Shown here piece by piece: positions 4,666 through 43,821 of a DNA stretch of 64,000 bases; the stretch's first letter is position 1, and each line of letters starts with the position of its first letter. The translations under genes and the position numbers were made by a program. Below the pieces are notes generated by a model. That model was not told the origin of the DNA. It saw only the letters and a list, made by a program, of their open reading frames with translations, and searched no databases. Source of the stretch: Actinomycetota bacterium (GTDB taxonomy: Bacteria; Actinomycetota; Acidimicrobiia; IMCC26256; PALSA-610); assembly GCA_005773635.1 (NCBI GenBank), contig SXHN01000035.1:11594-75593 (forward strand). Direction: 5' to 3'.

Positions 4666-4757
4666 AAGGCAACCTCCTACTCCACGGGCTGGACAACCGC
4701 AATGTAGCCCGTCTCGCTCATGGGCGCTCGCTCACAGCATCAACTAAGTTCAGCGAT

Positions 4758-4848
4758 GGAGGTGCAAGGGGTCTGGTGGCCCCCCTTGTCTTCAACACAA
4801 GTGTGACGGGTACACCCCGTCGGGTGGGTTCGATTCCTGCCACCTCCG
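4758..4848 (+). tRNA. selC: tRNA-Sec (anticodon UCA)
   Basis: The acceptor GGAGGTG pairs with CACCTCC. The D stem is 6 bp (GGGGTC/GGCCCC) with a 4-nt loop TGGT. The anticodon arm is CTTGT-CTTCAAC-ACAAG, with TCA at 4792-4794. The variable arm has a 6-bp stem (GACGGG/CCCGTC) and the T loop is TTCGATT. selA and selB are in the same window. CCA is not encoded. Confidence 0.85.
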
Positions 4849-4870
4849 CTTGTCAATGGCGACTGCTTCG

Positions 4871-35227: not shown

Positions 35228-35292
35228 TTGGCAGGCGCCGCACGCCTGGCGACACACGGTTGCCGTCGCACGGTCGACGCGTTTGGCGAGTC

Positions 35293-35338
35293 GGCGACAC
35301 AGAGCCCAGACGGTTGGCGACACAGAGCCCAGACGGTT
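35293..35338. repeat. Perfect 2 x 23-bp tandem repeat (GGCGACACAGAGCCCAGACGGTT)
   Basis: The units are 35293-35315 and 35316-35338. A shortened copy, GGCGACACACGGTT, lies at 35248-35261. All are in the intergenic region upstream of tRNA-Pro. Confidence 0.9.
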
Positions 35339-35492
35339 GGCGCGTTTGTGTACCCCCGGCGGTCGAATAACGCGCCAACCCGGCATGACCCTTCAGCGAC
35401 GGCGCGAAAGTCGACCGCCCACGGTACGAAAACGCGCCAACGCTTCGAACCGCCGGGAGGGTCGACGGATAGAGTGCCCCAGCTTCACCAAA

Positions 35493-35570
35493 CGGGGTGT
35501 AGCGCAGCTTGGTTAGCGCGCAGCGTTCGGGACGCTGAGGCCCCGGGTTCAAATCCCGGCACCCCGACCA
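35493..35570 (+). tRNA. tRNA-Pro (anticodon CGG), CCA encoded
   Basis: The acceptor CGGGGTG pairs with CACCCCG. The anticodon arm is CAGCG-TTCGGGA-CGCTG, the T arm is CCGGG-TTCAAAT-CCCGG, and the 3' end is ACCA. Confidence 0.9.
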
Positions 35571-35733
35571 CATAAGTCCAGTTCAGAGCCTATGCAATTC
35601 AACTAGGCAAAACCGGCAGGCAAATTCCATCCCGCGAGCATCCCGCGGACGATTGAAAAAGCAGTCGCGAAAACCGACGCGAGCAGTCGAAGCGCTGTAG
35701 CGCAGCGACCCACGCGAATTTGCCGAACGGGTA

Positions 35734-35772
35734 CTTGCATAACGCTCACAGACCGGGCAATCGGAGCGGGTT
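35734..35772 (+). repeat. Island repeat copy R1
   Basis: CTTGCATAACGCTCACAGACCGGGCAATCGGAGCGGGTT. Confidence 0.9.
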
Positions 35773-35858
35773 ACCCCGCGACTCTCGATGCTTGACTCAC
35801 ACACTGCCATCAGGGCATTATGCGCCGGTGTTGAAGCGGCGCACTTCTCGACGCGGCC

Positions 35859-36407
35859 TTGCGAAACTGCGAGCACGGTGTGATTGACGACGAGGCCCAA
35901 GTCGCTGTCGAAGTCGTTGTGACCCGACATGACATTGCCGCGTTAATGCGCTCGTTTGAGGGCGATGCGCCTGCTCGAATGCGCTTCGTTGGTGGGTCGT
36001 GGATGTTTCTTAAAGGTTTGAGTGGTGTCTCCGCCGTGGTTTTCACGATAGTGACACCGTGGGCATGGGTTCTTGTCGCTCTTGAAGGTGCCGTGCTCAC
36101 TCTCGAATTCGTAGGTCGTCGACAACAACAATCGTTGTACCCCGTCGCCGCATTCAACGGCCAGTATCTCGCATCTCCGGAGGGGATGGTACGGACCAAT
36201 AGCTTTTCGCAAACAACAGTGGCGTGGCCGAGTATCGTCGCACGAAGTACCGGCGATCGTTACCTCATCTTGTGCGGCGGTTCCGGTTGGGTGATCCCAT
36301 TTCGCTGTTTCAACTCCGACGAGCATCGCGAACATTTCCACGGTGTTCTCATGCACGTTGCAGCGAAAGATTCACCCAACCCGAACGCGTCATCTCCCAG
36401 CACATAG
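35859..36407 (+). CDS. YcxB-like small membrane protein (two central TM helices)
   Basis: The sequence has VVVTRHDIAALMRS..., two hydrophobic helices (GVSAVVFTIVTPWAWVLVALEGAVLTL) and a C-terminal WPSIV..YLILCGGSGWVIPFRCF, matching the YcxB-type layout. The start is uncertain (TTG 35859 or GTG 35880). Confidence 0.5.
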   Translation: MRNCEHGVIDDEAQVAVEVVVTRHDIAALMRSFEGDAPARMRFVGGSWMFLKGLSGVSAVVFTIVTPWAWVLVALEGAVLTLEFVGRRQQQSLYPVAAFNGQYLASPEGMVRTNSFSQTTVAWPSIVARSTGDRYLILCGGSGWVIPFRCFNSDEHREHFHGVLMHVAAKDSPNPNASSPST

Positions 36408-36424
36408 CTCTCTGCCGCCCGGTG

Positions 36425-36462
36425 CTTGCATAACGAGGCGGATCGGGCATTCGGAGCGGTTG
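36425..36462 (+). repeat. Island repeat copy R2
   Basis: CTTGCATAACGAGGCGGATCGGGCATTCGGAGCGGTTG, beginning 17 nt after the stop of the YcxB-like gene. Confidence 0.85.
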
Positions 36463-36467
36463 TCGAT

Positions 36468-36782
36468 CTACTCGGGTAATACGAATGACTGAGCGGCAAT
36501 CACGATGGCGTCTCCGCTTTGCATCTCGATCGTTAGCTCGCCGGGCGCAACACTCAATGAGTTGACCGAGACGCTGGGACCCCACGGTTGTTGACGGGAC
36601 ACACGGACTTCGAGCACTTCCTTTGCAACGAGGGCAAAGGTGCTCACTGCATTGCTCAGGAGAACAACGGCGCTACCGGTGGCCCAGTCGAACTCGACGC
36701 TGAGCAGAGTGGCGTCATGGAAGTCCATCGACGTGAAGGTACTGCCCTGCGTCACGACACGTCTGCCGTTTGGTACTTGCAT
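36468..36782 (-). CDS. Hypothetical small protein, inverted relative to the repeat array
   Basis: 104-aa ORF with a beta-rich, coding-like sequence (MDFHDATLLSVEFDWATGSAVVLLSN...). Its ATG (36782) lies inside the CTTGCAT of repeat R3; an alternative start is M19 at 36728. Confidence 0.5.
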   Translation of the reverse strand: MQVPNGRRVVTQGSTFTSMDFHDATLLSVEFDWATGSAVVLLSNAVSTFALVAKEVLEVRVSRQQPWGPSVSVNSLSVAPGELTIEMQSGDAIVIAAQSFVLPE

Positions 36783-36797
36783 AACGCTCGCAGACCG
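36776..36797 (+). repeat. Island repeat copy R3, left half (interrupted by IS)
   Basis: CTTGCATAACGCTCGCAGACCG; the match to the consensus then stops abruptly at 36798. Confidence 0.85.
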
Positions 36798-38225
36798 AAG
36801 GTCCTATGTGTTGTCAAGGGGTTGTTTCGGCGGTGCTGGCACACCAGTGATGAGTCAGTCGTGTTGACGACAAGGTCTTATTAAGCCATGCGGTGCCGAG
36901 GCTTTGTTGGTGGCGGGCCGGCAGTTCGTTCGAGAGACAACCGTGTTGGTGTCAGGGCATTCGTAAGCCAGGCCCGCCACACTCTTTGTGGTGTTATCGG
37001 TTGATGAGGTGGGGGTAGACCTCCCGTGCGACGTAACGCTTCAAGATGCGCATGATCTCGCGGGTTGGGCGTCCATCAGCTGTACGTCGTGCAACATATT
37101 TGCGGGTGCGTTCATCGTTACCCATCCGGGTTAACACGATCCGCCACAGTGCATGGTTGGCTTGACGGTTCCCGCCTGGATTGACTTTCATACGTTTCGA
37201 TTTACCTGTGGATGCTTTCAATGGTGCGACGCCACACATATGCGCGAACGCTGCTTCACTTTTCAAACGTTCGGGATTATCGCCCGCCGCGACGAGTAAC
37301 ACCGCAGCTGTGTAGGTCCCGACGCCGTATACCTCACGCAACGTCGGGGCGGTCCGGCGGACGAGCTGTTCGAGGAGCTCATCGAGTCGGGCCCTATCGG
37401 CATCGAGCGCGACGACGCGCCGCCCCAAGGTTTGGATCGCGAGTTTTGTCGCGTACACGACAGTGTCGCTCTTAGGGTTTGGTCGTAACGCGGCGGCGGT
37501 CTTCGCGAGACGTTCTCGTGAAACATCCCGGAATTGTTCACGGATCGTCTCGGGTGCCGTGAAGCCGAGGTGTCGGATCTGATTCAGATATTTGATCCGC
37601 ACATCGCGTGCCGAACGACGAGCGACAAGTAACGCACGGATCGCTTCCACGTCACCATCACCGGTCTTCGCGACCCCTTCAGCACGTCGCGAGAGCGCGG
37701 CGCGTGCGGCTTCGATCGCGTCGAGTTCGTCGGATTTGCCGTTACGACGCCGATCCTGACGGTTGGGACGGTCAACTTCGATCACGATCACGTCGTGGCG
37801 TTGCAAGAAACGTTTGATCCCCGCACCATACGAACCCGTGCCTTCGACTCCGACCCGGGTCGATCTCGCCATGAGCCGCGAGCCAGTCATGCAGGCTGCG
37901 GAACCCGGCCGCTGTCGTCGGGAATGATTCCACACCCAAGACACCACCGTTGTGGTCGAGTACTGCAGCCACACGTTCGTCCGCGTGCGTGTCAATGCCA
38001 CCCGTTACCGGGCCGCGAATATCTACGATGGTCATCTGCCATCCCTTCTTGGTTTAACGGTATTGAGGGGTGGCACGCACGTCCCGTGAAAGAGACCCTG
38101 TCGTGCTGGCTGCGCTAACAGTCAGCACGGTCACTCTCTGGAACGGGGCGTGCCCTATTTCAGTCCCGGCCTTATCGGCGAACACCCCGGAATGTGAACC
38201 GACTTGCACAACCCCATTCTCACTG
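36798..38225 (-). mobile_element. IS110/IS1111-family insertion sequence (~1.43 kb) inserted in repeat copy R3
   Basis: The element is bounded by the two halves of repeat R3. It carries a DEDD-type IS110 transposase. Sub-terminal inverted repeats GTTGTCAAG (36810-36818) and CTTGCACAAC (38203-38212) each lie 12 nt from an end. The boundaries are accurate to +/-2 nt. Confidence 0.75.
36994..38035 (-). pseudogene. IS110-family transposase, frameshifted
   Basis: The N-terminus (MTIVDIRGPVTGGIDTHADERVAAVLD..LHDWLAAHGEI, ORF 37772-38035) continues in another frame as RVGVEGTGSYGAGIKRFL...GKSDELDAIEAARA (ORF 36994-38001). The frame switches at the CCCGGG run at 37854-37859. Confidence 0.75.
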
Positions 38226-38244
38226 GGCAATCGGGGCGGGTTGG
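38226..38244 (+). repeat. Island repeat copy R3, right half
   Basis: GGCAATCGGGGCGGGTTGG resumes the consensus exactly where the left half stopped. Confidence 0.8.
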
Positions 38245-38277
38245 AACCAACGTTGTGAACACGGAGTCTTAAGAGGT

Positions 38278-38727
38278 GTGAAGCTTTCTTTTGTTGTTCG
38301 AACGCTGTCTCTAGTCATGCTGTTCTCGGCCTGCAACAACCCTCAAACCAGAAGTTCCCCTGTCACTACCACTTTGGGAGGGCAAGCGTCGTCGACCTCA
38401 ACGACGTTGCCTGCGATCGAGATCCGCAAATTCTCGGCGAAGCTCGGGTGCGGTCCGTCGGATGGTGCCTGGATATATATGGAGGTTGAGCTTGGAACTG
38501 CGCAAACGGTGTTCGCGGAAGTCTCCCAAGATGGACGGTCGTATGGGAGGTCTAAGAACACCCGCGCAGAGGCGGACTCGTTGATCCGTCTGGGATTTGA
38601 TCCTGCCGTTGAGAATACGAGTGACCCAAATTTGCGGGTCACGCTCTTCAGCATCGACGGACGTACGACAAGGAATCTCGGTGAACGGACAGTTGAACCA
38701 CATCCGCCAGACCGGAAGTGTGGATGA
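38278..38727 (+). CDS. Putative lipoprotein
   Basis: After a GTG start the sequence reads VKLSFVVRTLSLVMLFSAC (signal peptide plus lipobox), followed by an S/T-rich linker. Confidence 0.6.
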   Translation: MKLSFVVRTLSLVMLFSACNNPQTRSSPVTTTLGGQASSTSTTLPAIEIRKFSAKLGCGPSDGAWIYMEVELGTAQTVFAEVSQDGRSYGRSKNTRAEADSLIRLGFDPAVENTSDPNLRVTLFSIDGRTTRNLGERTVEPHPPDRKCG

Positions 38728-38749
38728 GGTGCACAACTGGCGTTCCCCG

Positions 38750-38792
38750 CTTGCAATAACACGCACAGACCGGGCAATCTGAGCGGATGGTT
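38750..38792 (+). repeat. Island repeat copy R4
   Basis: CTTGCAATAACACGCACAGACCGGGCAATCTGAGCGGATGGTT, beginning 22 nt after the preceding stop. It contains the ATG of the next gene. Confidence 0.9.
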
Positions 38793-39266
38793 TTGCGTCG
38801 CACGTCGGTGATCCTCGGTCTTGCGTTCGTCGTCGCCGGATGCTTTCAATCATCTGGTAAGAGCAACATCAATTTGGGCCTTGTCGAACCCTGCTCTTGG
38901 CTAAGAATCCAAGATGTGCGTCGGATTATTGGCCCGAATGTTGGGGTTGGTGCGCCCAATCCGCACTTTCCGCAGTGCAGTTTTGACTACACAAGTGCGA
39001 CTGGAATCCGCACAGATCTGGTTGTCGGATACGGGGAAGTAACTGCGCAGTCGATTCGGAGCTTCACGCTCCCAAATCATCGTAACCAGGTCGTCGAAAA
39101 TCTTGGCGATCACGCAGTCTTCCTTGAGGCAGCTTCTCTAGATGACGGCAACAACATCATTTTGGTTGTCGCCTCGCACAACCGGTCGCTTCTCATTGGG
39201 GGAGAATTTTTGAACCTTGATCAAGCAAAGCAACTCGCCGCACTGGTCATCGCGAAATGGACTTAA
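38787..39266 (+). CDS. Putative lipoprotein (DUF3558-like layout)
   Basis: MVLRRTSVILGLAFVVAGC forms a lipobox, and the mature part has two further Cys. The ATG lies inside repeat R4. Confidence 0.6.
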   Translation: MVLRRTSVILGLAFVVAGCFQSSGKSNINLGLVEPCSWLRIQDVRRIIGPNVGVGAPNPHFPQCSFDYTSATGIRTDLVVGYGEVTAQSIRSFTLPNHRNQVVENLGDHAVFLEAASLDDGNNIILVVASHNRSLLIGGEFLNLDQAKQLAALVIAKWT

Positions 39267-39283
39267 CGCACATCGGTAACCGA

Positions 39284-39324
39284 CTTGCATAACGAGCGCG
39301 GACCGGGCAATCTGATTGGGTTGG
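39284..39324 (+). repeat. Island repeat copy R5
   Basis: CTTGCATAACGAGCGCGGACCGGGCAATCTGATTGGGTTGG, beginning 17 nt after the preceding stop. Confidence 0.9.
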
Positions 39325-39356
39325 TCCTAAGACTGGTTTGATGGACGGATGGATTC

Positions 39357-39805
39357 GTGCCAGAGCCCGAGGATCCTCGCAGTTTTGCCATGATGACGAG
39401 ATGGATCATCCTTGCGCTGTTCTCGCCAGTCGTGATTTTGGGGTTGATCGGTGCTGTCGCGGCGCCAACAACATTCGAGCGAATTGCCGTATTCGCTTTT
39501 GGTGCTGGTTTCTCAGTGTTCGCTGGCGAGTGTGGAGGCAACGCGTCGAGGTTCACGAAACTCAGATAGTCATCGTCGGTTTCGCAAGGCGGCGCGTTTT
39601 GGGTCGAACTGATGTCCGATCGTTATCGTACGAAGGGCTATCTCGCTCGCTAGTGCTGAACACCATTGCAGGAAAGCGCGTTACCGTTTCCTTTATAGGT
39701 CAAGGCAAGAGTCGCTCCGAGGCCTTTGGTCGGGGCTCAGAAGCGACGATTGCTGAATTGGCCGCGTACCTGGGCGTGCCATTCGACGGCGCAAGATCGA
39801 ACTGA
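39357..39805 (+). pseudogene. 2-TM membrane protein with C-terminal beta-rich domain, apparent frameshift
   Basis: The N-terminus with two TM helices (WIILALFSPVVILGLIGAVAAP, IAVFAFGAGFSVFAG) ends at TAG 39569. A plausible C-terminus (VEVHETQIVIVGFARRRVLGRTDVRSLSYEG...) continues in the frame of ORF 39338-39805. The switch lies near 39535-39555. Confidence 0.4.
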
Positions 39806-39844
39806 CTGATGCACCTGAGTAGCAGCGCGGCCACGGGCACGGGA

Positions 39845-39913
39845 CTTGCATAACGCTCACCGTGTTGCGCTGGCGATAGCGGCCCGCACCGGGTATCGTG
39901 CAGCGGTGGCTGG
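39845..39913 (+). repeat. Island repeat copy R6, with a 27-nt insert in its centre
   Basis: CTTGCATAACGCTCAC [CGTGTTGCGCTGGCGATAGCGGCCCGC] ACCGGGTATCGTGCAGCGGTGGCTGG. Confidence 0.8.
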
Positions 39914-40316
39914 TGGTCGTGGGGACGCAAAGCGGCAGGCGAGCGAGGACCTCATCGTGGCCTTCGTTACACCGCTCCTCGATAGCGATGAGGGGATCGT
40001 GGCCGTCGTGGCTGCAGCCTGTGGCCCTCTGCCGCCGTTCACACCGCTGATTCCTCTGTTCGGTGTGATCGCGATGTTCACGCGATGGCTTGGAGTCTTC
40101 GCTTTGGTCGCGACGAACCAGAGGCTTCTGTTGGTGCGGCGCGCCAAGTTCTGGCAGGGATTGCCGCAGAAAATCGACCTCGCGGAACCGTTGGAAAGTG
40201 TCGACGTGACTAGTTGGCGGGACGGCTCGCGCTACGGCAAGCTCCGTATCGAGATCGGGGGCGAGGCGAGGCGACTGTGCGTGCCGCACCCTTTAATCGC
40301 GACGTTCCGACCATGA
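39906..40316 (+). CDS. 2-TM membrane protein with C-terminal beta-rich (PH-like) domain
   Basis: GTG 39906 lies inside repeat R6. Two helices (IVAVVAAACGPLPPF..LIPLFGVIAMF, LGVFALVATN) are followed by LLLVRRAKFW...GKLRIEIGGEARRL. The ORF could start earlier, at 39846. Confidence 0.55.
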   Translation: MAGGRGDAKRQASEDLIVAFVTPLLDSDEGIVAVVAAACGPLPPFTPLIPLFGVIAMFTRWLGVFALVATNQRLLLVRRAKFWQGLPQKIDLAEPLESVDVTSWRDGSRYGKLRIEIGGEARRLCVPHPLIATFRP

Positions 40317-40442
40317 TCTCGGCGATCACTCGCTCCTCGTCGACGGCATCAACGCCAACACAGGATGACCCACCGAAACCCCGATCACCGGAATAACCCG
40401 ACAACCACTTGACAGATCACCGGAATAACTGCCGTTATAGAA

Positions 40443-40484
40443 TTGCAATCACGATCGCAGAGCGGGCAATCTTGGCGGGTGGCT
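40443..40484 (+). repeat. Island repeat copy R8 (most divergent)
   Basis: TTGCAATCACGATCGCAGAGCGGGCAATCTTGGCGGGTGGCT. Confidence 0.75.
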
Positions 40485-40541
40485 AGGAGATCGTCGTTGT
40501 TGGTCTGTTTCGCTGCTGCTGTGATTCTCGGTGGCTGTTCG

Positions 40542-40781
40542 TCATCGAGCGATTCTCCAGCATCTCCTGATGCCTATTTGTGGTTCGTCGCCCGGCACTT
40601 CTTTCGCTTCAGCCAGATGGATCTCGGTCTGACCATCGAACTCCGCCAGGGTCCCGACGACAAGCGCCGACGGCGACGCTGCGATCGAGCGGGTTCCCAG
40701 GCTTTCAGGAAGCACGCCCGAGGCCGGGTCAAGCACCAGCACCAACCCGTTCGGCGGCGATATGCGTGACATCAGACTCAT
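40542..40781 (-). CDS. Hypothetical 79-aa protein (third gene of overlapping module)
   Basis: MSLMSRISPPNGLVLVLDPASGVLPESLGTRSIAASPSALVVGTLAEFDGQTEIHLAE... The ATG overlaps the stop of the HTH gene (ATGA). Confidence 0.5.
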   Translation of the reverse strand: MSLMSRISPPNGLVLVLDPASGVLPESLGTRSIAASPSALVVGTLAEFDGQTEIHLAEAKEVPGDEPQIGIRRCWRIAR

Positions 40782-41014
40782 TGCGGACCATCTACGGTTA
40801 CGACCTCGCCGGGCGTCGCACACGCGATCAAGTTGATGCCGGTCTCGTATAACAGTCCGGCTTCTTCGAGCTGCTCGGGGTTCAGTGTTCGTCCGCGCCA
40901 TCGATGGCCTGCAACATCGTTTCGTTTGAGGTGTGCCATGACCGTGTTGCGATCGATTCCAAACTGCTCTGCCAAGGCGTTGATCTCAGCGCCTTGGCAG
41001 TCGGCGCGCCGCAT
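40778..41014 (-). CDS. Small helix-turn-helix protein
   Basis: GAEINALAEQFGIDRNTVMAHLKRNDV is a resolvase/HTH_23-like HTH. The start is taken at ATG 41014, which shares one nt with the upstream stop; the ORF extends to 41056. Confidence 0.55.
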   Translation of the reverse strand: MRRADCQGAEINALAEQFGIDRNTVMAHLKRNDVAGHRWRGRTLNPEQLEEAGLLYETGINLIACATPGEVVTVDGPQ

Positions 41015-41271
41015 CAGCTTCGTTGTGTAGGTCGTACACGGAACCCTCTGAGGCACGCACCGCTATCGCAGAACGCACCAATCGTTGTGCCCGGACCATT
41101 GAGAAGACCCGAGACCTGGGCGGGCGTCATCGTGGGCAGGTTGTGAACCGTCACCCCAGGTAGGTTGCCAAACCGAGCGACGTCGTCGGCGTACATGCTC
41201 GCGTCGACAATCGTCGACCCGTTCGGTAGTCCGTGAACCCCGCTGATGACGTTGACATTGCCGCTGTACAT
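41014..41271 (-). CDS. Hypothetical 85-aa protein (possible orphan toxin-type C-terminal domain)
   Basis: MYSGNVNVISGVHGLPNGSTIVDASMYADDVARFGNLPGVTVHNL...IGAFCDSGACL. The composition is coding-like and the stop overlaps the HTH gene start. The function is a guess from context. Confidence 0.35.
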   Translation of the reverse strand: MYSGNVNVISGVHGLPNGSTIVDASMYADDVARFGNLPGVTVHNLPTMTPAQVSGLLNGPGTTIGAFCDSGACLRGFRVRPTQRS

Positions 41272-41393
41272 CCGAAGCCGCCAGCACCCGTCTCGACACC
41301 GAAGGCCGCCAACACCTCAAAGCCACCCTCGAAGGCCTCCTCCTCCGCACCGAAGCCCGACGCTGGGCCAGCTGAGAAAGCCAGACGCGGCTA

Positions 41394-41954
41394 TCAGGCA
41401 AGCATCGGCATCCGGTCGACATCGGTGAGATCCGGGTCGACATCGACCAGTCGATCCTCGAAAGCCGGCCACCCCCTGCTAGCAACGAAGTCAGCCTCGG
41501 AACGCGACACCGGGACCAGCCAGACGATCACGACGTTCTCGAACTGCCCGAACTCATCCGGCAGATAGACGGGGATCGCCGCGTACAGCGCCTCCATCGT
41601 CGACATCGAAAAAAGCGGCCCCCGGGGACCCACTACATCGCCGCGCAGCAGAGCCGAGCCAGAGGCCAAAACGTCTAGCCCGACCTGCTGCAACAAACCC
41701 GGCACGGGCCCTTCCCGAAGGCGCTCCGGCACGATCATCATGAACTCGTGCCGCACCGGCTTGCCCGATCGCCGTGAAGGAAGCGGCGTTGAACTCAGTC
41801 CCAGTGTCGAGAACACCGAGCAGCCCGAGAGCACCCCAGGAGTGAACCTCACCACCTGGAACGGCAAATTGAAGCCGTCGGCGTCCTTCGACCATCCCAG
41901 CTCAATCTCGCCGAGAAAGCGCTCCAGATGACCCACCAGCCCCGGCGTCACCAT
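41394..41954 (-). CDS. SUFU-like (suppressor-of-fused domain) immunity-type protein
   Basis: HLERFLG..., FSTLGLS, HEFMMIV, LLRGDVVGP, ALYAAIPVYLPDEF, VIVWLVPVSRSEADFV..GW..FEDRL match the layout of bacterial SUFU-domain proteins. The start is taken at M13. Confidence 0.6.
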   Translation of the reverse strand: MVTPGLVGHLERFLGEIELGWSKDADGFNLPFQVVRFTPGVLSGCSVFSTLGLSSTPLPSRRSGKPVRHEFMMIVPERLREGPVPGLLQQVGLDVLASGSALLRGDVVGPRGPLFSMSTMEALYAAIPVYLPDEFGQFENVVIVWLVPVSRSEADFVASRGWPAFEDRLVDVDPDLTDVDRMPMLA

Positions 41955-43039
41955 CGTCGGTTGCCCGCGCCACGGTTGCAAGGCCCGCACTCCAACCCAA
42001 CGCCCGTGTTGTAGTCATCGAGCACCTGTCGCCGCGTCACCTCCGCCGGAAACTCCCGGTTCGACCACGAAGGATTATGTGACCCATCCCGGTCCCGCGG
42101 TACCCGGTTGCGGTCGGGCGTGCGTGGCCATCGATATTCGACCGCCGGAAATCGCTCAATGGTCTCCAGCGATTCTTTGAGCATCTCAATCGCTTCGCGG
42201 TACGCGGAACGGCGAACATCCTCTTCGTCGCACTTGACTGCAACCGTTCGTGAAAACTTCGTGTCAAACACACGTTCCGCGAGTAGCCACTTGGCATACT
42301 CAGTCTTCGCTCCGACGTTGTCGGGCGACAGCGCTATCGATTCCTTTAACCATTCGACCCGTGGTTTGTTGCTTCGCATCGCGGCCCGGAACATCGCATA
42401 CGACTCGAAATATGCAGTGCCGAACATCCTCGGGGCTTGCCGCAGGTGTTTCCTGATGAAGGGCCACTTCCTCAATCGTTGAAGTCCGAAGGCTGTCCAC
42501 GAAGCGATCCGCGTCGCGATTCGCAGCGCTGCGTCCCTCTCTGACGAAATCGGTTCCGAAAAGCTCCGCGACGCGACTAGGCATCCATTCGCTTTGCGGA
42601 GCCTCACCGTCGCGACCAAGCTCTGCGAAACGCGAAATATCCCACAGTCGATCTTGTACCGACATGGATGCCACATCGTGTCAACGACCGACTTCACAAA
42701 TTTGAGCTCTTCGCCAACTTCAACGCCAGCAAACGGACTACCTGGCCCTGCGAATCGACCGAGATGATGTCCCGACGTACCAGCAAACGTGAGTTCGTCA
42801 ACAACAACCGGTCGTATCGATGCCAACAAGTCATCGTTTGCTGCGTGCTCGAATGTGTTGACCTCAAATTGCACGGTGCGCGCCCATGGTCGACGTACCC
42901 AAATCCATCGCAATGAGACCAGCAAAAGGACACAGGACACGGTCCAAGCTGCAATCTCGCCTTTAGCTTTGGATAGCCAATCCGGCCAGGATCCAAATAC
43001 GGACCCAAGCAGCCAAGACGCAATGTGCATGTTCGCCAT
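41948..43039 (-). CDS. Hypothetical 2-TM membrane protein with helical C-terminal domain
   Basis: 363 aa. N-terminal helices (IASWLLGSVFGSW, AAWTVSCVLLLVSLRWIWV) precede a soluble domain. It lies 2 nt downstream of the deoxyribosyltransferase gene, and its stop overlaps the SUFU-like gene. Confidence 0.55.
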   Translation of the reverse strand: MANMHIASWLLGSVFGSWPDWLSKAKGEIAAWTVSCVLLLVSLRWIWVRRPWARTVQFEVNTFEHAANDDLLASIRPVVVDELTFAGTSGHHLGRFAGPGSPFAGVEVGEELKFVKSVVDTMWHPCRYKIDCGIFRVSQSLVATVRLRKANGCLVASRSFSEPISSERDAALRIATRIASWTAFGLQRLRKWPFIRKHLRQAPRMFGTAYFESYAMFRAAMRSNKPRVEWLKESIALSPDNVGAKTEYAKWLLAERVFDTKFSRTVAVKCDEEDVRRSAYREAIEMLKESLETIERFPAVEYRWPRTPDRNRVPRDRDGSHNPSWSNREFPAEVTRRQVLDDYNTGVGLECGPCNRGAGNRRW

Positions 43040-43041
43040 CG

Positions 43042-43512
43042 TCAGTCGCTCAATCGTTCAATTGCTACATCGAGGACGGTCTCAATGCAACCGCCAGACT
43101 TGATAATGAACCACTCCACCTGCAGATTCACGACTGCGGCCTCGTTATCACCGGACTTGCGAAAATCGCTGCGCAACCCAATCACACGCTTTCGCAGCGC
43201 AGATGCGTAACCGATCTCGGCCGCAGTACCGCTGTCCACGTCGGGACCGTCGAGAAACGCCAGAACCGCATCGCAGGTCTCGATCATTTCGGCATTGCGT
43301 CGCCCGATGTAAGCATTCACTTCAGCGAGACGCGCGGCGCGACGCGGATTTCCCTCGGGCAACGCCAAGATCGCTCCGATCTCGGACGGGAGAGTCCATG
43401 GATCAAGCGGTTCGAAACCAACTTCCCGCAAGGCCGGCAAGACGACCTCGGCCAAGTACATAGCACCCGAGGCAGTGAAGCCCAAAGGACCAGCCACGTA
43501 CACGCGGACCAT
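43042..43512 (-). CDS. Nucleoside 2-deoxyribosyltransferase family protein
   Basis: MVRVYVAGPLGF... and CDAVLAFLDGPDVDSGTAAEIGYASAL match the NDT fold with the D.GT..E.G catalytic block. The ORF extends to 43581. Confidence 0.7.
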   Translation of the reverse strand: MVRVYVAGPLGFTASGAMYLAEVVLPALREVGFEPLDPWTLPSEIGAILALPEGNPRRAARLAEVNAYIGRRNAEMIETCDAVLAFLDGPDVDSGTAAEIGYASALRKRVIGLRSDFRKSGDNEAAVVNLQVEWFIIKSGGCIETVLDVAIERLSD

Positions 43513-43821
43513 CGGCGGATTCTTCACGGAATCATTCTGTCGCAAGAGATTCTGCGTGTCACCTCCAGCGATACACCCCATGCAGTGCGTAAAGATTGCG
43601 GGACTGCCAGGTCCGACTGACGAAGATACGAGATCGGCGCCAAGACCTTGTTAAGCACCGACCTGTGGTGCCTATGAGCGAGCAGCGATTCTCAATGACT
43701 GAAGATCGTCACCGCCATCGCCTGTACCCTGGGTCGGCGGAATGCGTCGTCGCCGAGTTGTGCGACTCATCGCCGAAAACCGTGATCAGGTCGGGCGCAC
43801 ATCGTTCGACCCGAACGCTGT

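Follow-up and report, generated by a model that had tools for sequence, protein, structure and literature searches.

Recombinase-associated acquired interbacterial defense clusters of the Bacteroidales (rAID-1) combine a XerD-family recombinase with short orphan-immunity genes in one orientation and with motifs conserved between the genes (bioRxiv 10.1101/471110; PMC12247911), and the way in which such arrays arise has yet to be explained (PMC12247911). Here, we analyze an array of intergenic repeats beside a tRNA-Pro gene in a 64,000-nt stretch of an Acidimicrobiia genome (contig SXHN01000035.1, positions 11,594 to 75,593). The whole 64 kb stretch is referred to as the window, and L-numbers (L007, L034, L144 etc.) denote loci or contigs of other genomes or metagenomes. 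The repeated element is best described as a repeat with a putative promoter, derived from the ends of a recombinase element, that frames single-gene cassettes. The closest functional analogue of the array is the rAID-1 cluster, followed by integrons and their recombinase-less arrays, and it is a member of neither because there is no attC fold, no IntI and no contiguous recombinase, and because phylum and motif differ. To our knowledge, integrons are essentially unknown in Actinomycetota.

As in rAID-1 clusters, short co-oriented genes each follow a motif. The cargo of rAID-1 clusters includes orphan immunity genes, and here one cassette appears immunity-like by fold. The other cassettes differ in encoding lipoproteins and two-transmembrane (2-TM) bPH proteins, and elsewhere small enzymes. 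The host is an actinomycetote rather than a member of the Bacteroidales, the GC context is another one and the motif is unrelated. Furthermore, in related loci two inverted motif copies enclose the recombinase and arrays diverge on both sides, while the window array has no contiguous recombinase (one is present in L144, L153-L157, L166, L174, L217 and L228). With integrons, the locus shares single-gene units between copies of one recurring site that are mostly co-oriented, unrelated accessory cargo (GNAT, nucleotidyltransferase, toxin-antitoxin and lipoprotein genes), the existence of recombinase-less arrays, known for integrons as clusters of attC sites lacking integron-integrases (CALINs), and IS110-family insertions in the sites. 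However, attC is a folding imperfect palindrome of 57-141 nt whereas the repeat here is unfolded, and integron cassettes are promoterless and rely on one promoter (Pc) whereas each unit here appears to have its own -35/-10-like pair. Moreover, arrays here can extend on both sides of the recombinase, and there is no IntI.

The repeats are real and far above chance. The sequence CTTGCATAACG occurs exactly five times within 4.2 kb (35734, 36425, 36776, 39284 and 39845) and nowhere else on either strand of the 64 kb, where about 0.03 occurrences of an exact 11-mer are expected by chance. GGGCAWTC is found 13 times in the window compared to 5.0 +/- 2.1 in shuffled sequences, and six of the 13 lie inside the array. 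Left blocks start at 35734, 36425, 36776 (right part at 38225), 38750, 39284, 39845 and 40443. A previous interpretation made from the letters alone, the sequence-only reading, had located copies at all of these places on the plus strand, which we can corroborate, but had counted eight where its own coordinates make seven elements. It had also noted that no further copy exists in the 64 kb, in agreement with an nhmmer profile of the copies that gave none outside the array. The 27-nt insert in copy 6, the adjoining tRNA-Pro gene and the splitting of copy 3 by an insertion sequence (IS), here an IS110-family element between its two blocks, were likewise confirmed.

The extent of the repeat needs revision. 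The conserved stretch is about 55-58 nt long instead of ~42 bp, an (A/T)CTGCCG block opens it 1-8 nt past the preceding stop codon where a gap of 17-40 nt had been given, and the center, described as freely varying, is one of two variants, CGCTCACAGACC or CGAGCGCGGACC. The right edge of the repeat is the next start codon or lies just short of it. Copies are 350-1450 nt apart with a gene between each pair, and the columns TTGCA and GGGCA.T are invariant in the alignment. Mean identity over the aligned unit of ~60 columns is 0.61 within the array and 0.56-0.61 between genomes, while the ~36-nt core alone appears near 80% identity, judged by eye from the alignment. Because identity within the array is not above that between genomes, the motif seems to be held by selection and not by recent duplication or gene conversion. 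A tandem-duplication origin of the array was also rejected, as there is no BLASTP similarity among the cassette proteins and no excess of within-array identity. Copy 1 is followed by a second promoter-like box related to the repeat (Table 1), and this doublet is ~75% identical to L034 3197-3100.

The most obvious property of the repeat, overlooked in the sequence-only reading, is a sigma-70-type geometry with a start codon at the predicted +1. The -35-like hexamer reads TTGCAT (variants TCGACA, TCGCAT and TTGACA), and the -10-like hexamer is CAATCT, CAATCG, CATTCG or CAATAT with GGG directly before it. Among 46 collected sequences, which stem from two partly overlapping sets, the hexamers are spaced by 17 bp in 26, by 18 bp in 16 and by 16 bp in one. 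As judged from the sequence, hexamers 16-18 bp apart and a start 6-8 nt downstream agree with a promoter of the sigma-70 type, with CAATCN as a non-canonical -10 element. At seven of 21 GGGCAWTC-type boxes, an ATG or GTG 7-8 nt past the box opens an open reading frame (ORF) of 60 codons or more, compared to a background of 1.3% per position. These are window units 4, 6 and 7, L034 3103, L144 2125, L151 834 and L008, where the gene encodes a 400-codon cyclase. Lipoprotein signal peptides start exactly at this register at window positions 38787 and 40479, at L034 3103, L144 2125 and L151 834, and in L156. The remaining units have leaders of 30-100 nt with a Shine-Dalgarno-like sequence. A promoter anatomy with a predicted start at the start codon of the next gene is well supported by these arrangements, and the position of the start codon 7-8 nt past the box in many units, i.e. 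at the predicted +1, suggests a leaderless promoter there. Leaderless mRNAs are common in Actinomycetota. The L151 orthologue of lipoprotein 4 (55% amino acid identity), which sits between purC and tRNA-Gly, keeps GGGCATTC-N7-ATG and is without the -35 half.

The repeat is also related to the ends of a mobile unit. In L144, the gene of a XerC/D-family tyrosine recombinase lies between two outward-pointing copies, and the same inverted bracketing is seen in the other loci with a contiguous recombinase listed above. Among 80 recombinase loci, 19 have at least one end copy and nine have both. Different element loci share only ~1.03-1.16 kb between the end copies, and the two ends of one element co-vary in their spacer (TCGCATAAGCGTCCCAGAGC at both ends in L217, AACCGGGCCGGAGC in L228 and GACTCGACAGAACGAGCGCGGAGC in L153/L154). 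Bracketing, the ~1.1 kb as the sole shared part and the co-varying ends together indicate that the end copies are genuine terminal inverted repeats (TIRs) of a small mobile unit. A hidden Markov model (HMM) built solely from 18 element ends recovers five intact window repeats (E 8.6e-7 to 9.5e-3) and all copies of L034, L021, L007 and L008 in the correct strand and register, with no other match below E 0.5 in 97 kb. It is well supported by this sequence similarity that the window repeat belongs to the same family as the terminal repeats of the XerD-like unit.

Of 29 further copies close to the elements, 22 are directed away from the recombinase (left 11/16, right 11/13). Behind them are genes for lipoproteins, secreted proteins, GNAT, nucleotidyltransferase, DinB-like, DHFR-like and hydrolase proteins and a BrnT/A pair, a cargo that we judge to resemble that of chromosomal integrons. 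L156 and L157 contain the same lipoprotein gene with the same leader and -10 box, preceded by its own repeat in L156 and by an element end in L157, and the breakpoint falls inside the motif. Some recombinase-proximal copies in L155-L157 are part of a long hairpin. In the native module of L156 and in L034a, two inverted ends stand back to back, as if the interior had been lost.

According to NCBIfam models, the recombinase is Xer-like and scores below every equivalog cut-off; against the integron-integrase model it reaches 72-78 bits (cut-off 265 bits). More than 400 relatives with 66-85% amino acid identity were found; they are numerous in metagenome-assembled genomes (MAGs) of Actinomycetota, often with several per genome. 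The XerD-like family looks like an undescribed IS-like element family with a single tyrosine recombinase, and the literature searches made returned no description of the element or the motif. The recombinase family, represented here by L153-L232 from GTDB genomes, ranges over Acidimicrobiia, Streptosporangiaceae and even MAGs labelled Acidobacteriota or Chloroflexota, and subfamilies without the motif have other flanking hairpins, e.g. CCGCCTGGCCGG...CCGGCCAGGCGG. A phage-type tyrosine integrase recurs beside arrays or the XerD-like unit (L034 523-1665, L144 3-1109, L159 and L162). The L034 and L144 integrases are 35% identical, and both are convergent with a lipoprotein cassette.

Pattern scans covered 185,579 species genomes and the Joint Genome Institute (JGI) metagenomes. 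Beyond chance matches, the motif was found only in a narrow set of Acidimicrobiia contigs. In L034, tRNA-Thr is followed directly on its 3' side by 5-6 copies in the same orientation, each unit holding a single gene (in one case an inverted thioesterase gene), and a phage-type integrase sits at the far end. L021/L024 contain two copies beside an element integrated at tRNA-Val, L131 and L144 have copies in an Ilumatobacteraceae MAG, L007 (a MAG) has a copy at the contig end beside IS21, and L008 has a possible copy. None was detected in the 80 loci of relatives that are syntenic with the left flank of the window; the nearest relatives, L048 and L065, are syntenic up to tRNA-Pro, where their contigs stop. 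A phage origin of the repeats was rejected, with 0 motif matches in viral contigs. The contigs L007, L024, L131, L144, L048, L065 and L233 often end at or near arrays or the tRNA that heads them, consistent with assembly breaks in repeated or strain-variable DNA.

Each inter-repeat segment had been described as holding exactly one small gene. This holds overall, with seven units of 70-175 codons, six of them co-oriented and each with the motif ahead, except that the gene of unit 5 is frameshifted and unit 7 consists of a signal peptide alone. The single inverted ORF was confirmed as well, its true start being M19 (36728) instead of the one assumed. Searches of Pfam, NCBIfam and PADLOC gave no cassette family beyond weak YcxB/bPH_6 matches. 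The inverted cassette 2 encodes a member of a large family of 85-105 aa proteins (825 representatives), whose alignments start at M19. Its AlphaFold model has a predicted local distance difference test score (pLDDT) of 94 and matches chains D and E (114-115 residues) of 8owu, a polymorphic-toxin/immunity complex, with Foldseek query-normalized TM-scores (TMq) of 0.73-0.76 (0.76 for 8owu_E); we take these chains to be the immunity protein PIM7(Bc). The model also matches 5v77, an uncharacterized Neisseria protein. Cassette 2 is therefore predicted to have the fold of a polymorphic-toxin immunity protein. No repeat motif was found near its homologues in other organisms (L239-L242). The array has a GC content of 0.56 compared to ~0.59 around it and adjoins immunity and toxin genes, so that the locus looks variable, acquired and partly immunity-related.

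We favor, with belief and doubt about evenly balanced, an array of cassettes that is without a recombinase of its own, has its units bounded by recombinase sites with promoters and was built by recombination at the repeats. It would probably be a new, integron-like way to string together and express accessory genes. Each repeat would correspond to an end repeat of a small mobile element, without the recombinase; the autonomous form of this element (~1.1 kb) encodes one XerC/D-family tyrosine recombinase, which may recognize the repeat. The repeat would hold an outward sigma-70-type promoter (-35 TTGCAT, 17-18 bp spacer, GGG and -10 CAATCN), with transcription predicted to begin at or a few nt before the start codon of the next gene, so that every array unit would have its own, often leaderless, promoter. 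Seven such head-to-tail units of unrelated small exported, membrane and immunity-like genes would stand beside tRNA-Pro. The array was most likely built, and could be reshuffled with gain and loss of cassettes, by the recombinase acting in trans at the repeats. The system would thus parallel integrons and the rAID-1 clusters of Bacteroidales, with the window array as a recombinase-less ("CALIN-like") form.

Several observations argue for this cassette array. Copies are co-oriented even before inverted genes (window copy 2, L034b), where a promoter alone would not require uniform orientation, and in the units stop codon, repeat and start codon follow closely upon each other. The cargo genes are mutually unrelated and lower in GC content, arrays diverge from the recombinase, and the L156/L157 junction lies inside the motif. 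Furthermore, the array contains an immunity-fold cassette and is adjoined by a SUFU immunity gene and a toxin fragment. The cassette-like view of the sequence-only reading is partly supported and fares better than anticipated with regard to lineage-restricted arrays, unrelated and inverted genes and the link to recombinase-element ends, while the repeat itself is not attC-like and not MIRU- or REP-like. The analogy to integrons made there fits the architecture of the array but not the chemistry of the site.

Other observations weigh against a cassette array built by this recombinase. The absence of an integrase noted previously was verified, as tblastn found no integrase homologue or remnant anywhere in the window, and this extends to recombinases of any kind. 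In 61 of the 80 recombinase loci there is no motif detectable by the HMM used, and co-localization is confounded by lineage. The tyrosine integrases near other arrays are mutually diverse. The motif lacks a pair of inverted arms of 11-13 bp on either side of a 6-8 bp spacer, and the spacing of its blocks varies by +/-1, both of which are atypical for the core site of a tyrosine recombinase. No core site is identifiable in it, and inverted terminal repeats alone cannot excise an element by simple site-specific recombination. With respect to the promoter, T at -7 is absent in about half of the copies and T at -12 is always absent (C there). Finally, L233-L238 and L047 are colinear with and ~100% identical to the window, and no unit-wise gain, loss or shuffling is seen; since every accessible assembly of the locus is identical, the comparison across strains proposed in the sequence-only reading is uninformative on cassette exchange.

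More broadly, Acidimicrobiia and perhaps other Actinomycetota might possess an undescribed gene-capture platform, a proposal that we regard as tentative and rather doubtful. It would consist of a mobile XerC/D-family recombinase and ~45-bp sites that double as leaderless promoters, with arrays extending outward from both ends of the unit and recombinase-less arrays serving as banks of immunity, envelope and small-enzyme genes.

Alternatively, the repeat could be a shared promoter or operator, i.e. the regulon of one sigma factor or regulator, on clustered envelope and accessory genes, with the XerD-like and IS110-family elements merely targeting this abundant motif or mimicking it by outward promoters of their own, and without any exchange of cassettes at the repeats. 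The promoter geometry and the start-codon register are what a regulon predicts, the conserved spacer and upstream block fit an operator or activator site, and GGGYAWT resembles the GGGTAT-type -10 of sigma-B/F-like factors. The L151 lipoprotein orthologue, which retains the -10/+1 half outside any array, and the presence of two unrelated mobile elements in the motif, as for a favored target, point the same way. However, a regulon sits poorly with the absence of copies from the remaining 59 kb and from the 80 syntenic loci, and copies ahead of inverted genes have nothing to transcribe. Moreover, the element ends are complete, inverted and co-varying and do not resemble halves of one disrupted target, and the close packing of stop codon, repeat and start codon also speaks against it. 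We consider a regulon, one of the two main alternatives, unlikely.

Equally improbable, in our opinion, are non-autonomous derivatives of the XerD-like element akin to miniature inverted-repeat transposable elements (MITEs), which would have been inserted singly and kept as promoters in the manner of Correia elements, with genes that never moved as cassettes. Correia elements and promoter-bearing MITEs are indeed short, transposon-end-like intergenic repeats with outward promoters for unrelated genes, and this would account for the likeness to element ends, the outward promoter-like structure and the back-to-back inverted ends in the native module of L156 and in L034a. Yet all seven window copies and all L034 copies have a single orientation, even before inverted genes, and hardly any intergenic DNA is left between stop codon and repeat. 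In the window copies, the inverted arm on the upstream side scores weakly (5.5-8/11 matches with partial scoring, only (A/T)CTGCCG being left), and target-site duplications were not seen. The array genes are unrelated ORFans with a GC content below that of the surroundings, which fits acquisition together with the repeats. In contrast to Correia elements and MITEs, the parent element encodes a tyrosine recombinase and not a DDE transposase, the copies form ordered one-per-gene arrays instead of being scattered, and the start codon is embedded in the repeat. Putative mobile promoters have been defined as sequences in front of non-paralogous genes that share 80% identity or more over 50 nt or more (PMC3575422). 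The genes here are non-paralogous as well, while the mean whole-unit identity of ~60% appears to fall below this value, which the ~36-nt core alone may approach.

A classical integron cassette array, or an attC cluster without integrase, is very improbable. Single genes between repeats, mostly co-oriented apart from the odd inverted cassette, would fit, as would the IS110-family insertion in a site, and IS1111-attC elements insert into integron attC sites. However, an attC-like nature of the repeat, which the sequence-only reading had already noted to be shorter than attC, did not survive structural analysis: RNAalifold on 15 copies yields 0 pairs, and single copies folded as single-stranded DNA on both strands are no better than shuffles (z -1.1 to +0.7), so that the check proposed there for conserved RNA/DNA structure over the copies came out negative. 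A small stem in copy 1 (CGCTC/GAGCG) is not conserved, the left side being CGCTC or CGAGC and the right side always GAGCG. The unit of 42-58 nt has no R''/L''-L'/R' symmetry, there is no IntI, the linked recombinase scores 72 instead of 265 bits, and every unit has a promoter-like site.

A repetitive extragenic palindrome (REP) or bacterial interspersed mosaic element (BIME), a terminator or a structured RNA leader hardly comes into question, since despite the intergenic position and the long hairpin around some recombinase-proximal copies, there is no Rfam match at the repeats, no consensus structure and no T-run, a terminator scan of the repeats was empty, and start codons inside the repeat leave no leader to fold. 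The sequence-only reading had named a generic, genome-wide REP-like repeat as its refutation; instead, the motif is lineage-restricted, stands in arrays and has no stem, and neither the other 59 kb nor the 80 syntenic loci contain a scattered copy. Its comparison to mycobacterial interspersed repetitive units (MIRUs) does not apply either, because MIRUs are head-to-tail tandem repeats within one intergenic region and the copies here are not tandem but have a gene between them.

Acinetobacter pdif modules resemble the array in that Xer-family sites delimit small, often single-gene modules in series. Their sites are 28-bp, dif-like (11-6-11) and of alternating orientation and use the host XerC/D, whereas the repeats here are co-oriented and linked to a dedicated mobile recombinase. 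A pdif module was rejected, as the consensus has no 11-6-11 dif-like symmetry and all window copies have the same orientation. RIT (recombinase in trio) elements consist of tyrosine-recombinase genes flanked by terminal inverted repeats and are, like the unit described here, multi-copy, mobile tyrosine-recombinase units with inverted ends. They are counted among the simple tyrosine-recombinase elements (PMC8138268). The unit here differs in having one recombinase gene and not three, a size of ~1.1 kb and ends that would double as outward promoters.

In the locus and its relatives, single-gene units, a ~45-bp site and a recombinase unit of ~1.1 kb make up a compact system defined by sequence. 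Action of the recombinase on the site, if it occurs, would account for the precise fusion of unrelated genes to a common leaderless promoter and would provide a testable model of cassette capture with built-in expression, in a phylum from which arrays of this kind are not known to have been described. If the gene-capture platform exists, it would give Gram-positive bacteria an equivalent of integrons and rAID clusters with a different site logic, in which each captured gene arrives with its own promoter or fused to it at the start codon. Even if the promoter part alone is true, many unrelated genes of an uncultured lineage would have recruited the end of a mobile element as their promoter.

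Table 1. Features of the repeat array and its surroundings (window coordinates).
Feature	Position	Strand	Basis or remark
tRNA-Pro(CGG)	35493..35570	+	Array head, ends 164 nt before first repeat; ARAGORN, Rfam
Repeat copy 1 (TTGCAT-17-CAATCG)	35718..35775	+	Profile E 3.5e-17; TIR-only HMM E 6.6e-4
Second promoter-like box, TTGACT-18-CATTAT, GGGCATTATGCGCC type	35790..35830	+	Follows copy 1, related to repeat
Cassette 1: 2-TM YcxB/bPH-like protein	35880..36407	+	Pfam YcxB E 5e-4
Repeat copy 2	36411..36465	+	No co-oriented gene after it; TIR-only HMM E 4.7e-4
Cassette 2, inverted: 86-aa all-beta protein, predicted polymorphic-toxin immunity fold	36468..36728	-	Family, AlphaFold2, Foldseek
Repeat copy 3, left part (-35 block and spacer)	36762..36797	+	
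IS110-family element, 1,427 bp, frameshifted transposase	36798..38224	-	Pfam; ends set against relatives
Repeat copy 3, right part (GGGCAATCGGGGCGGG)	38225..38245	+	
Cassette 3: lipoprotein	38278..38727	+	Leader with Shine-Dalgarno
Repeat copy 4	38735..38792	+	ATG 38787 is 7 nt past GGGCAATC
Cassette 4: lipoprotein	38787..39266	+	Orthologue with GGGCATTC-N7-ATG in L151
Repeat copy 5	39268..39326	+	TIR-only HMM E 8.6e-7
Cassette 5: 2-TM and bPH_6 gene, frameshifted	39357..39805 (39357-39569, 39533-39805)	+	Same sequence in L233
Repeat copy 6, 27-nt insert, GGGTATC box	39845..39913	+	GTG 39903 is 8 nt past box
Cassette 6: 2-TM and beta-domain protein	39903..40316	+	
Repeat copy 7	40427..40484	+	GTG 40479 is 7 nt past GGGCAATC
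Cassette 7: lipoprotein signal peptide only	40479..40769	+	Truncated where minus-strand block begins
Right flank block: helix-turn-helix (HTH) gene, Tox-HDC-like fragment, SUFU immunity gene, 363-aa unknown	40542..43039	-	Pfam
Small HTH gene	40778-41056	-	
Tox-HDC-like toxin fragment, 85 aa	41014-41271	-	Pfam
SUFU-family immunity gene	41394-41990	-	E 6e-14

The IS110-family element is inserted exactly between the -35-like and -10-like blocks of copy 3, and a frameshift splits its transposase into the ORFs 37772-38035 and 36994-38001. Its last 22 nt (38203-38224) bring TTGCAC to a distance of 18 bp from the resident CAATCG, and this re-created pair (TTGCAC-18-CAATCG) is promoter-like and lies ahead of the lipoprotein gene of cassette 3. 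One end of the element (38197-38212, AACCGACTTGCACAAC) agrees in 15/16 positions with 39278-39293, where copy 5 of the repeat has its left edge. A specialization of the element on the repeat was rejected, as its relatives in L128 and L129 are inserted elsewhere. The IS relatives in L128 and L151 have a common target core of ~14 nt (..CTGCC|CG[AG]TC..), and the relative in L152 is without both ends.

Around the array, the 3' end of tRNA-Pro does not recur over 12 nt or more, as it would at the boundary of an island. Just 5' of tRNA-Pro (35290-35441), there is a 23-nt tandem duplication (GTYGGCGACACAGAGCCCAGACG x2), followed by 41-nt inverted arms (GTTGGCGCGTTT...AACGCGCC / GGCGCG...AACGCGCCAAC) that are 80% complementary and 24 nt apart. 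A 19-codon ORF starts at GTG 35828, 6 nt past the CATTAT of the second box, and its stop codon overlaps GTG 35880 (GTGATTGA), where the YcxB-like gene likely starts. This short upstream ORF may be leaderless and translationally coupled to the YcxB-like gene. The gap before repeat copy 7 is unusually long (126 nt) and houses both copies of a 15-nt direct repeat, GATCACCGGAATAAC, which are 38 nt apart (40378-40430) around a perfect TTGACA.

On the right, a nucleoside 2-deoxyribosyltransferase gene (43042-43581, minus strand) closes the minus-strand block, which as a whole (40542-43581) is of the orphan polymorphic-toxin type and truncates the last cassette. A sequence resembling the repeat upstream of the SUFU gene (41949-41966) was discarded because its spacing is wrong and it lies inside a coding region. 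Far from the array, the window contains a tRNA-SeC gene (anticodon TCA, 4757-4849), and the organism therefore probably uses selenocysteine.

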